A stretch of 64,000 nt of DNA, taken from Bacteriovoracia bacterium. Lineage in GTDB: Bacteria; Bdellovibrionota; Bacteriovoracia; Bacteriovoracales; Bacteriovoracaceae. Under the pieces are notes generated by a model. It was not told where the DNA came from. It saw only the letters and a list, made by a program, of their open reading frames with translations, and did not search any database. The stretch lies in assembly GCA_046570105.1 (NCBI GenBank), contig JBKHVI010000009.1, positions 1 to 64,000 of the forward strand, given 5' to 3'. The position numbers and the translations under genes were made by a program. Shown in pieces: positions 39,286-42,025 of this stretch. The stretch's first letter is position 1. Each line of letters opens with the position of its first letter.

Positions 39286-40548
39286 ATGGATAAATTACTC
39301 GTCACAGGCCCTGGTCGCTTAAACGGAACTGTCACTGTATCGAGCGCTAAGAACGCGACTCTTCCGATATTGGCCGGCGCTCTTTTATTTGAAACTCCGG
39401 TGAAGCTTGCCGACATTCCTAAACTCAACGACGTCGCCACCATCATCAAGCTGCTTGAGAGCATGGGTGTAAAAGTTGAGCGTGATGGCAAGAACATGAC
39501 CCTTGATAGCTCGAACGTGCATAACTTAGTCGCTGACTATGCTCTGGTTAAAACCATGCGCGCATCGGTTTTGGTTTTGGGACCACTTCTCGCGCGTTTT
39601 GGTAAAGCCAAAGTTTCTCTACCCGGCGGTTGTGCCATTGGTGCACGTCCGGTGGATATTCATCTCACCAATCTAGAAAAGATGGGTGCTAAGATTCAAA
39701 TCGAGCAGGGTTATATTTTAGCCGAGTGTGAGCGCTTGCAAGGTTGTGAGTTATCACTTTCTTTCCCATCAGTCGGTGCCACTGAAAATTTAATGATGGC
39801 CGCTGTCTACGCTGACGGTGAAACGATTATTGAAAACGCCGCTCGTGAACCAGAGATTGTCGATCTCGCTAATTTCCTCATTCACTTTGGAGTGACAGTG
39901 GAAGGTGCGGGGACTTCACGCATTCGTATAATTGGAACAAACACACAAAAGAAATATGCAGCGACGAAACCTTATCGCCCGATCGGGGATCGCATTGAAG
40001 CGGCGACGTTTATTATCGCCGGTCTCATGGCGAACTCAAATATTGTCGTGAATGGCTTTGAGCCATGGACATTAGAAGCTGTGCTTGAAACCTTAGAGAA
40101 GATGGGTGCGAAACTCACGCGTTTAGAAGACGGAGTAGAGGTTCATCCCTCAGGTCGCTTGAAAGGCGCGGTGATTGAAACAGCTCCTTTCCCAGGATTC
40201 CCAACTGATGTTCAGGCACAGATGATGGCACTGATGTGTCTCTGTGATGGAAACTCGATTATTACAGAGCAAATTTTTGAAAATCGTTACATGCACGTAC
40301 CAGAACTTATTCGCATGGGCTGTAAAGTAACACTCAAGGGCAATGCCGCTTTGATTGAAGGTGTGGAATCACTTTCAGCTGCTCCGGTTATGTGCACCGA
40401 TCTGCGCGCCTCAGCTGCATTGGTGCTGGCCGCGCTCACGGCTCATGGACAATCAGATATCCAGCGCATCTATCATCTGGATCGTGGTTATGAAGATCTT
40501 GAAGCGAAGTTTAAAGCGTTAGGTGCAAAGGTTGAGCGAGTTAAATAA
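39286..40548 (+). CDS. murA: UDP-N-acetylglucosamine 1-carboxyvinyltransferase
   Basis: AKNATLP, MRAS, LPGGCAIGARPVD, FPGFPTDVQ, DLRASA, LDRGYE. Confidence 0.98.
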   Translation: MDKLLVTGPGRLNGTVTVSSAKNATLPILAGALLFETPVKLADIPKLNDVATIIKLLESMGVKVERDGKNMTLDSSNVHNLVADYALVKTMRASVLVLGPLLARFGKAKVSLPGGCAIGARPVDIHLTNLEKMGAKIQIEQGYILAECERLQGCELSLSFPSVGATENLMMAAVYADGETIIENAAREPEIVDLANFLIHFGVTVEGAGTSRIRIIGTNTQKKYAATKPYRPIGDRIEAATFIIAGLMANSNIVVNGFEPWTLEAVLETLEKMGAKLTRLEDGVEVHPSGRLKGAVIETAPFPGFPTDVQAQMMALMCLCDGNSIITEQIFENRYMHVPELIRMGCKVTLKGNAALIEGVESLSAAPVMCTDLRASAALVLAALTAHGQSDIQRIYHLDRGYEDLEAKFKALGAKVERVK

Positions 40549-40590
40549 CCCGCAACCTTTAAGCATTTGCATAAAATCCCGCTCCCCATT

Positions 40591-40648
40591 AAAATAAAAA
40601 AACTGGTGAGGGATAGAACCCCATGATGCCGGCATGGGCCCTCACCAG
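40591..40648 (-). terminator. Intrinsic terminator, copy 1
   Basis: CTGGTGAGGG/CCCTCACCAG stem with inner CCCATG/CATGGG, then T7ATTTT on minus strand. Confidence 0.85.
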
Positions 40649-40701
40649 AAATCATCCTTACATTCATAAGGGATTTTTGATAAGGCCATAGAGCAACTCA
40701 C
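40642..40701 (-). CDS. Putative 19-aa peptide, copy 1 (MSCSMALSKIPYECKDDFW)
   Basis: AGGAGG SD 6 nt before GTG; frame and stop conserved in copy 2. Confidence 0.5.
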   Translation of the reverse strand: MSCSMALSKIPYECKDDFW

Positions 40702-40831
40702 GGGCCACCTCCTAAATTCTTAAGACATTAATTTGTTTGAACTCCGAACACTTTGCGTTGGAAAATATTCATCGCGCGATGGAAAAAAACGGACGTCAAA
40801 GCTGAGATTGCGCAAAATTAAATTACCCCTT

Positions 40832-40888
40832 AAAATAAAAAAACTGGTGAGGGATAAACCCCATGGGCAGTACATGGGCCCTCACCAG
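40832..40888 (-). terminator. Intrinsic terminator, copy 2
   Basis: Same stems as copy 1 with an entirely different 7-nt loop; U tract. Confidence 0.85.
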
Positions 40889-40941
40889 AAATCATCCTTA
40901 CATCCGTAAGGGATTTTTGATAAGGCCATAAAGCAACACAT
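40882..40941 (-). CDS. Putative 19-aa peptide, copy 2 (MCCFMALSKIPYGCKDDFW)
   Basis: AGGAGG SD 6 nt before ATG; paralog of 40642-40701. Confidence 0.5.
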   Translation of the reverse strand: MCCFMALSKIPYGCKDDFW

Positions 40942-41066
40942 AGGCCACCTCCTAAATTTGTAAGCCAAAGAAAATGCAATACTTCGAATGCAATGTGTTG
41001 GAAGAAATTGACCACACGAAGGAAAAAATTGGCTAAACTAGCTCCATAAAATACTGAGGAGCAGTG

Positions 41067-41402
41067 ATGGACGATTGTTTGTTTTGCAAAATTTTTCAAG
41101 GCAAGATTCCCTCGAAAAAAGTCTATGAAGACGACAACGTCTTTGCTTTTTTAGACATCAATCCTTTGGCGAAAACCCATATTCTTTTTATTCATAAAAA
41201 ACATACTGAAAACGTTAATGGACTCTCGACCATTCACGTGGGGCAAGTCTTCACAGCGATTAAAAATTTCACCACCGGAACTGATTTAGAAAAGAAAGGT
41301 TTCCGTGTCGTCACCAATTCAGGCGCTGATGCCTGTCAGACGGTTTTTCATGCGCACTTTCATGTCTTGGGTGGTGAGAAGCTCGGTGGCTTTGGAAAAT
41401 GA
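41067..41402 (+). CDS. hinT: HIT family nucleotide hydrolase
   Basis: DCLFCKI, AFLDINP, QTVFHAHFHVLGG. Confidence 0.92.
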   Translation: MDDCLFCKIFQGKIPSKKVYEDDNVFAFLDINPLAKTHILFIHKKHTENVNGLSTIHVGQVFTAIKNFTTGTDLEKKGFRVVTNSGADACQTVFHAHFHVLGGEKLGGFGK

Positions 41403-42025
41403 TCACGGACAAGCGCCGGCCGTATTTTGATTTCTTTCACGGCTTTCAATCACCGCTCTTAAATATTACCTGGGAAGTGGAAACAGAAGATTTCACTGCG
41501 AAATGTAAGCGCGAAGGTGTCTCGAGTTATCAATGGCTCGTGTATTCTCTTTGTAAGGCCTGCTTGGAAGTGGAACCATTCCTATGGCGTCTCGATGATA
41601 AAGGCGAACCAACCAAAGTCTCAACCCTCACGCCTTCCTACACAGTCATGAAAGAAGATGGAAATTTCAATTTTTGTACGGTTCCATATCAAGCCGACTT
41701 TAAAAAGTTTATAGAAAAGAGTTTAGCGGTTAAAGAGGTGGCACAGAAACATCCGGATGGACTCACGAACGATGAGCCAGGCAGAATTGATTATCTATTT
41801 ATTACATCAATTCCGTGGATGAAGTTCACTTCGATCCAGCACCCGGTGTTTGATATTAAAAATGTGCATGTACCAAGTTTTGCTTTTGGAAAGTTTCAAG
41901 TGGAAAACGGACGTATCCGTTTCCCATTCTCAGTGCAAGGCCATCATGGCTTTATCGATGGCCTGCATATGCATCAGTTAGAAGTCGCACTAAAGAAAGC
42001 GCTCAATGCCCCTGCATCCCTTTAA
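41399..42025 (+). CDS. CatA-like (chloramphenicol acetyltransferase family) O-acetyltransferase
   Basis: RRPYFDFF, TSIPWMKFTS, P.FAFGKF, HHGFIDGLH catalytic motif. Confidence 0.85.
   Translation: MITDKRRPYFDFFHGFQSPLLNITWEVETEDFTAKCKREGVSSYQWLVYSLCKACLEVEPFLWRLDDKGEPTKVSTLTPSYTVMKEDGNFNFCTVPYQADFKKFIEKSLAVKEVAQKHPDGLTNDEPGRIDYLFITSIPWMKFTSIQHPVFDIKNVHVPSFAFGKFQVENGRIRFPFSVQGHHGFIDGLHMHQLEVALKKALNAPASL

Follow-up and report, generated by a model that had tools for sequence, protein, structure and literature searches.

Tandem units between murA and hinT of a Bacteriovoracia bacterium belong to an apparently undescribed structured RNA family with a predicted terminator and a predicted promoter on opposite strands

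The intergenic region between a murA-type gene and a HIT-family gene (hinT) of a Bacteriovoracia bacterium (positions 40560-41062 of the first 64,000 nucleotides of contig JBKHVI010000009.1, assembly GCA_046570105.1; this whole stretch is called the window) contained two colinear units on the minus strand with a period of 240 bp. The locus raises the question of what such a unit specifies, a peptide or an RNA, and from which strand. An earlier note made from the letters of this DNA described each copy as a Shine-Dalgarno (SD) sequence, a 19-codon open reading frame (ORF), hairpins, and a U7 tract, and proposed an undescribed small RNA (sRNA), micropeptide, or dual-function RNA. Comparison of the units with their relatives pointed to a structured RNA family, and we tentatively read the units, with a little less than even confidence, as convergent sense/antisense RNA cassettes used from both strands. 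Coordinates of the features are collected in Table 1; for family members elsewhere, plus and minus denote the strands equivalent to those of the window.

A direct-repeat search detected a 95-nt repeat pair with 91% identity (40633-40727 and 40873-40967, spacing 240) and a 55-nt pair with 80% identity (40567-40621 and 40808-40862, spacing 241). Chance cannot explain repeats of such length and identity. When the two units were aligned over their full length, the mean column identity was 84%, with almost no variation in the core between the SD and the U tract. On the minus strand, each unit read, in order, AGGAGGTG, a start codon, 19 codons, a UGA stop within CUGGUGAGGG, a long hairpin, and seven T (U7 in the RNA), so that all the parts described earlier were found again by the repeat search and by reading of the sequence. 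Our recount of the core agreed with the 13 substitutions reported before, seven of them in the terminator loop, and added one indel; these seven changes occupied every position (7/7) of the apical loop of the long hairpin. RNAfold reproduced the three hairpins that had been named, with minimum free energies of −45.6 and −44.5 kcal/mol for the two units and z scores of −2.1 and −2.2 against shuffled sequences.

To collect relatives, BLAST was used together with a covariance model, R1, built from 19 units. Together with the pattern scan described below, the searches yielded 81 distinct copies, nearly all in one family of Bdellovibrionota, and most carriers had Bacteriovoracaceae, Bacteriovorax, or Halobacteriovorax in the record title. 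For the genome of the window itself (G000), BLAST and the model together gave five copies, two on contig C9 and one each on C103, C17, and C32, those on C17 and C32 being partial. The family was carried by six of the 10 other genomes of the genus, often in tandem arrays of two copies (period about 245-255 bp) or four (about 131 bp). Among 151 genomes of the taxonomic family, including the window's own, the 14 with a match belonged to 6 of 69 genera; when 150 other genomes were sampled across the phylum, matches were found in 6/23 of the same family, 1/11 of one other family, and 0/116 elsewhere. A pattern scan of one genome per species returned 62 loci; because of its search pattern, AAAACTGGTG, CACCAGAAA, and ATTC are fixed in half of the data. 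The covariance model confirmed 52 of these, and the 10 others lay in unrelated taxa in a number that fitted chance expectation. A scan of Rfam 15 at E values up to 10 gave 11 matches, all chance-like and none near its gathering threshold, the best being mir-921 with 22.1 bits against a threshold of 80. One match of 90.8 bits (L136, G231:C67:5998-6087) was in a genome of another family of the phylum and another (L085) in a record titled Sulfitobacter; both could represent transfer or a mis-binned contig.

The structure was examined in an alignment of 75 matches (72 distinct sequences) fitted to the model. Such a fit favors the structure by itself, although the effect was far larger than this bias. 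Over the 72 distinct sequences, standard pairs filled 95.2% of the cells, compared with 71.9% in column shuffles; 20 of the 22 pairs had changed on both sides, and none of 500 shuffles reached any of the observed measures. When the 3′ partners were slid by one column, pairing fell to 51-54%. In the small hairpin (P2), all six pairs covaried, and the loop was GAAU in 66 and GGAU in 3 of the 69 loops found. The long hairpin (P3) had a nearly invariant base, CUGGUG/CACCAG, an outer stem that was 98.7% paired across the family, and an inner stem that covaried freely (7/7 pairs). The third hairpin of the earlier note, GGCC..GGCC, consisted of four invariant pairs present in only some units of the genus, and its status as a selected structure gained no support. 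When paralogues were compared (68 pairs from 17 genomes), the fraction of differing positions was 8% in the P2 loop, 12% in the P3 base, 17% in the U tract and −10 region, and 22% in the linker, and reached 73%, near saturation, in the P3 apical loop. This pattern fits a common scaffold with copy-specific loops, and the compensatory changes together with the invariant loop point to selection on an RNA. With this covariation over 72 distinct sequences and no Rfam match near threshold, the suggestion of an undescribed structured RNA family was borne out. A reading of GGUUCUAUCC..CACCAG as a tRNA T arm with a CCA end was judged by eye and dropped for wrong spacing. The inverted repeat ATTTC-N6-GAAAT recurred on the minus strand of units of other genera (L045, L046, L056, L062, L076, and others, by eye and uncounted), where it preceded P2 by about 55-110 nt.

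If the minus-strand RNA were also translated, a 19-residue, Cys-containing peptide would make the units dual-function RNA or micropeptide genes. Both window copies and two orthologous copies of genome G007 had the 8-nt SD AGGAGGUG, a start codon 4 nt farther on, and 19 sense codons, yet these four were the only ones among 75 units with this frame. In the survey of these units, which accepted ORFs of at least 10 codons with an SD-like motif 3-16 nt before the start and a start 20-130 nt upstream of P3, 53 units had no SD-led ORF, and the remaining 22 carried ORFs in frames 0, 1, and 2 at 10, 8, and 10. At the murA-hinT locus of G006, a single unit had AGG at the position of ATG and an A run longer by one A, with loss of the start and a frameshift. 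Adjacent copies a and b on C118 of G007 had a common start region and A runs differing by one A, so that they were read in different frames, and copy a had lost its UGA stop. Between the window copies, there were three amino-acid changes to one silent change, and two changes inside P2 kept, or affected only, RNA features. The peptides, MSCSMALSKIPYECKDDFW and MCCFMALSKIPYGCKDDFW, ended in KDDFW and were polar by eye, without a long hydrophobic run, and a 28-amino-acid form had no Pfam match. The nucleotide sequence was kept while the reading frame was not, a pattern typical of an RNA or DNA element rather than of a peptide gene, and we regard the peptide as very improbable. The SD-like motif was confined to the 240-bp "long" unit type of the genus. 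A regular-expression search found a similar purine-rich motif outside the genus in only 3 of 81 units, and the candidate of an SD homologous across genera was dropped. The ~100-nt leader and the SD, formerly listed as parts of the unit, were not conserved outside the genus. The SD and 19-codon ORF of the window copies are a lineage-specific 5′ extension and do not represent the conserved function; an SD and ORF that are convincing in one genome can be a by-product.

The same results bear on a type I toxin-antitoxin system, with which the units had earlier been compared and in which the minus-strand RNA would be the mRNA of a small toxin and a plus-strand RNA overlapping its 3′ end would be the antitoxin. 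Sib/Ibs of Escherichia coli (formerly QUAD repeats) is a type I system of tandem intergenic units with expression signals on both strands. The window units resemble it in their tandem arrangement, in predicted signals on both strands, in an ORF of about 19 codons opposite a predicted small RNA, and in variable segments that might allow copy-specific pairing. However, Ibs peptides are hydrophobic and conserved, whereas those here are polar, mostly absent, and frame-shifting, and Sib spans the whole ORF and ribosome site, whereas the antisense RNA here would span only the 3′ ~80 nt. In txpA/RatA and bsrG/SR4 of Bacillus subtilis and par (Fst/RNA II) of the Enterococcus plasmid pAD1, toxin and antitoxin RNAs overlap at their 3′ ends. 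The predicted convergent layout, overlap at the terminator end, and strong antisense promoter opposite a weak or unseen sense promoter would be similar to these systems, which differ in having a conserved membrane toxin; conserved coding potential was absent here, and the start predicted for the promoter falls exactly on the terminator stem. With a polar peptide conserved neither in frame nor in presence, and with short units that had no ORF at all, the type I interpretation is also very unlikely, despite the tandem copies and the short ORF of the window units.

Both P3 sites of the window were listed as a stem plus T run in a terminator search on the minus strand, and the GC-rich stem was directly followed by the U tract; across the family, T filled six or more of the 8 nt behind P3 in 54 of 70 units. 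This arrangement is that of a canonical intrinsic terminator. At several loci, a minus-strand ORF ended within about 100 nt of P2, leaving no space for another terminator, and P3 must therefore be the terminator of that gene.

On the plus strand, directly behind the U tract, there was TAnnnT, followed by seven mostly A bases and then by the C of CUGGUG. The sequence logo of the family was T-16 G-15 n T A n A A T with TTG near −35. TTG at a spacing of 16-18 nt was present in 78 of 81 units, TANNNT at a fixed offset in 75, and both cores in 73, again at a fixed offset; in units found without a DNA pattern, both were present in 34 of 39. The extended −10 TG, one base upstream of the −10, occurred in 50 of 81 units and was absent in both window units. 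By a simple promoter score with a threshold of 9.5, 93% of the 81 units scored at least 9.5 at one offset, compared with 0.5% of all positions. Ordinary terminators of the window's genome likewise consist of a GC-rich stem and a T run, but only 9 of 306 other terminator-like sites (2.9%) reached the score on the opposite strand, whereas all five family sites did, at 10.5-11.2, and the family adds a second hairpin and a conserved stem sequence. The P2-less copies on C32 and C17 still had the plus-strand promoter and P3. These results indicated a conserved, predicted sigma70-type promoter on the plus strand pointing into the terminator hairpin, and the advice of the earlier note to look for a plus-strand antisense RNA proved sound. 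A sigma54 or sigma28 reading of nearby motifs was judged by eye and dropped for wrong spacing. At the level of sequence analysis, the family, its covarying structure, its terminator, and a position-fixed, conserved promoter can thus be taken as established.

From this geometry, the tentative cassette reading would work as follows. On the minus strand, the RNA would end in P2 with its nearly invariant GAAU loop, the conserved linker GAUGAUUU, P3, and U5-7. The plus-strand promoter (TTGnnn, 16-18 nt, often TGn, TAnnnT) would start a transcript at the first base of the P3 complement, and this transcript would end after the P2 complement and a U run, giving an RNA of ~78 nt that would match, as a full complement, the 3′-terminal ~80 nt of the minus-strand RNA. 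In the window, the start of the first predicted plus-strand RNA was placed 7 nt after the −10. The strongly promoted plus-strand RNA would be a cis-antisense RNA to the end of the minus-strand transcript, a loop-loop contact would lead to a duplex and then to processing or destabilization, and the terminator would shield the plus-strand promoter from incoming transcription. Production of both RNAs, and interaction between them, is what we infer from the layout. It is conceivable, although we give this clearly less weight than the convergent arrangement itself, that the unit is an undescribed, self-contained cassette in which one hairpin is a terminator on one strand and the 5′ stem of a promoted RNA on the other. 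Each transcript ending at such a cassette would then meet a perfectly complementary small RNA. The cassette would have been copied behind many unrelated genes of Bacteriovoracaceae, and the fast-diverging apical loops would keep sense/antisense pairs private. It would serve predators, in which Hfq and ProQ seem to be lacking, as a portable, antisense-controlled 3′-end module.

Whether the minus strand is used as RNA could be approached through wobble pairs, since a G.U pair on one strand is an A.C mismatch on the other. Counts on the model-fitted alignment lean to the strand of the model, and we used instead the six ungapped P2 pairs next to the loop with the register chosen strand-neutrally, skipping the 12 of 81 units without a clear hairpin. 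In the remaining 69 units, there were 46 G.U on the minus strand against 10 A.C, and over 46 distinct hairpin types, 34 against 10; the P3 outer stem had 13 against 6. The P2 wobble pairs favor folding on the minus strand. The A run between the −10 and the start is superfluous for a promoter and matches the needs of a minus-strand terminator. From the wobble asymmetry and the strict A run, it would therefore follow that the minus strand is selected as RNA and the other strand as promoter.

The principal rival, which we consider possible but with distinctly less than even probability, assigns the RNA to the plus strand only. Each unit would be the gene of a stand-alone, trans-acting sRNA of ~78 nt, in tandem like other multicopy sRNAs, composed of the promoter, a 5′ hairpin, a short C/U-rich linker, a terminator hairpin with an AUUC loop, and a U run; the minus-strand "terminator" would be the complement of the 5′ hairpin and the A-rich start region and could have been retained to insulate against transcription from the opposite direction. 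The promoter was the most regular feature of the family, the similarity of paralogues within a genome ran from the −35 to about 15 nt past the small hairpin, and in 55 of 71 units the first 10 nt of the model included five or more A, equivalent to a plus-strand U run after the small hairpin. On the other hand, the small hairpin would have A.C mismatches in many plus-strand RNAs, by the excess of 34 to 10 given above, and the strict A5-7 run exactly suits the opposite terminator. Neither Hfq (PF17209) nor ProQ (PF04352) matched in the window's genome, and this may also speak against a trans-acting sRNA, although the genome is only 88% complete.

Several observations weigh against the convergent cassette. 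In G005, four complete promoter-plus-RNA units followed one another every 131 bp, with room only for the plus-strand promoter and its RNA, and this array favors the plus strand as the primary gene. Whole-unit folding energy did not distinguish the strands: of 81 units, 43 were more stable as the minus strand and 38 less so (Wilcoxon p 0.10). On the minus strand, the 170 nt that precede P2 contained no position-conserved sigma70-type promoter, and promoter-like scores in this region did not exceed those of shuffles or of the reverse strand. Loci that lack an upstream minus-strand gene, the window included, thus have no predicted origin for a minus-strand RNA, and inspection of the minus strand of the window by eye also gave no promoter. 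In a context survey of 29 loci with crude ORF calls of at least 80 codons, oriented by the plus-strand promoter, the right gene was co-directional in 13 of 27 loci and convergent in the other 14, and where it is co-directional, the promoter may serve mRNAs. The flanking genes had no common function. Moreover, the related sequences are not independent, and the counts given above overstate significance. As a separate observation on the minus strand, 45 of 71 units outside the genus (for example L056, L069, and L076) had TGNTA at a distance of 10-13 nt before the start of the model, against 1 of 71 control windows, with a T/A-rich patch about 17-20 nt further upstream; because T was never found at the last hexamer position (the sixth position after TG-N, 0/45), the motif is not an ordinary −10 despite its promoter-like geometry. 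A 249-nt contig from a run guessed to be RNA covered 40496-40741 with ~91% identity; it showed neither strand nor ends, and no conclusion was drawn from it.

The number and placement of the copies might also suggest a repeat of the REP or MITE type scattered through intergenic regions, or a portable punctuation element made of a promoter and a terminator, without an RNA function of its own. Several copies occurred per genome, with up to seven loci in one record of a metagenome-assembled genome (MAG), and some were partial. In the context survey, the left gene was co-directional in 19 of 28 loci and in 16 of these ended 19-81 nt before the −10. The window's genome contained eight ORFs of 190-257 amino acids with weak to moderate matches to PF01797 (Y1 transposase), on C1, C8, C14, C2, C62, C33, C72, and C59 (L128-L135), which may be REP-associated transposases. 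None of the eight (0/8) was on a unit-bearing contig, however, the copy number was low (five in this genome), no terminal inverted repeats were seen, viral contigs contained no family match, and copies sat at orthologous positions in different species, at murA-hinT in three genomes and at a second locus in two others' worth of comparison, that is, two genomes. With the compensatory changes and invariant loop that point to selection on an RNA, a mere repeat element is improbable, if a little less so than a peptide gene.

A role as a CsrA-titrating RNA, which the earlier note had allowed for on account of GGA motifs, is the least probable of the readings that we considered. The csrA gene was present in the window's genome, GGA lay within 16 nt before P3 in 53 of 71 units, and the window units add AGGAGG, copy 2 also having the GGAU loop. 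Yet the conserved loop is GAAU rather than GGA, each RNA would have only one or two GGA, and each unit ends in a predicted terminator, so that arrays would not form one multi-site RNA.

Tandem multicopy sRNA genes are well known from LhrC1-5 of Listeria, PrrF1/2 of Pseudomonas, and Qrr1-4 of Vibrio. The present units share with them short promoter-to-terminator units side by side, a conserved scaffold, and paralogues elsewhere in the genome; they differ in lacking any sequence or Rfam relation to them, and in those genes no conserved terminator is known to be formed on the opposite strand from the same hairpin. In its proposed working, the family resembles both the 3′-overlapping antisense pairs of type I systems and the tandem multicopy sRNA genes. 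Because the toxin ORF was not conserved and there was no Rfam relation, it belongs neither to the type I systems nor to the known tandem sRNA families; we regard it as a new family of RNA that varies on established modes of RNA control. Literature searches on Bacteriovorax, Halobacteriovorax, or relatives gave no description of a small RNA, and the terms sRNA and noncoding were absent from the main-text portion of an article on Bacteriovorax chromatin (PMC11789641), which has RNA-seq and KAS-seq for its strain. With its more than 80 copies, its covariance model, and the starts and ends predicted for either strand, the family is a well-defined RNA element that can be tested. Should both strands be made, it would be a compact example of a terminator and a promoter in one hairpin, and would bear on 3′-end control in bacteria in which neither Hfq nor ProQ was found.

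Table 1. Positions of the tandem units, their predicted parts, and the adjoining genes in the window
Feature	Position	Strand	Basis or remark
murA-type gene, EPSP_synthase/MurA-type protein	39286-40548	+	PF00275, E 6e-103; stop 18 nt before −35 of unit 1
−35 hexamer TTGCAT, unit 1	40567-40572	+	17 nt upstream of TAAAAT
−10 hexamer TAAAAT, unit 1	40590-40595	+	complement of AUUUUA after the minus-strand U tract
U7 tract, unit 1	40596-40602	-	on the plus strand, A7 between −10 and start
Predicted plus-strand RNA 1, ~78 nt	40602-40679	+	5′ hairpin, AAAUCAU linker, small hairpin, U5; predicted from promoter geometry and hairpin/T run at 40656-40678
P3 long hairpin, unit 1, CUGGUGAGGG..CCCUCACCAG	40603-40648	-	predicted minus-strand terminator stem; covariation
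19-codon ORF and stop, unit 1 (GTG..UGA), MSCSMALSKIPYECKDDFW	40642-40701	-	GTG at 40701-40699; not conserved in the family
P2 hairpin, unit 1, CCUUAU GAAU GUAAGG	40656-40671	-	folding, covariation
SD-like AGGAGGUG, unit 1	40706-40713	-	start codon 4 nt after its last base
−35 hexamer TTGCGC, unit 2	40808-40813	+	17-nt spacer to TAAAAT
−10 hexamer TAAAAT, unit 2	40831-40836	+	fixed offset of the family
U7 tract, unit 2	40837-40843	-	read from the sequence
Predicted plus-strand RNA 2, ~77 nt	40843-40919	+	predicted as for RNA 1; plus-strand hairpin/T run at 40895-40912
P3 hairpin, unit 2	40844-40888	-	folding, covariation
19-codon ORF and stop, unit 2 (ATG..UGA), MCCFMALSKIPYGCKDDFW	40882-40941	-	ATG at 40941-40939
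P2 hairpin, unit 2, CCUUAC GGAU GUAAGG	40896-40911	-	folding
SD-like AGGAGGUG, unit 2	40946-40953	-	start codon 4 nt after its last base
HIT-family gene (hinT), HIT-domain protein	41064-41402	+	PF01230; 144 nt after unit 2; same direction as the plus-strand promoters

Downstream of the units, a gene on the plus strand at 41399-42025 encoded a 208-amino-acid protein of the chloramphenicol acetyltransferase family (PF00302, E 3.6e-22). Because its start overlaps the stop of the HIT gene, the two genes probably form one operon. Read-through from a plus-strand promoter could, in principle, feed a co-directional next gene such as hinT. On C32 of the window's genome, a P2-less unit was followed 40 nt later by a co-directional ORF of 478 codons, and because of this arrangement, its promoter may drive an mRNA. 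The same 113-amino-acid, Cys-rich protein ending in ..CPxCGLCF preceded the unit in two species (L005, the C32 locus of G000, and L026 on C286 of G006). The sequence ACCCG(N)(N)ACC, with (T)TGGCA..TTGC a few bases on, directly preceded the −35 of the plus-strand promoter (about −45 to −60); it was seen by eye and uncounted in the window at 40548-40572, where it begins at the murA stop codon, and in the left flank of the genus units L016, L017, L018, L020, L004, and L047; this motif could be an activator site.

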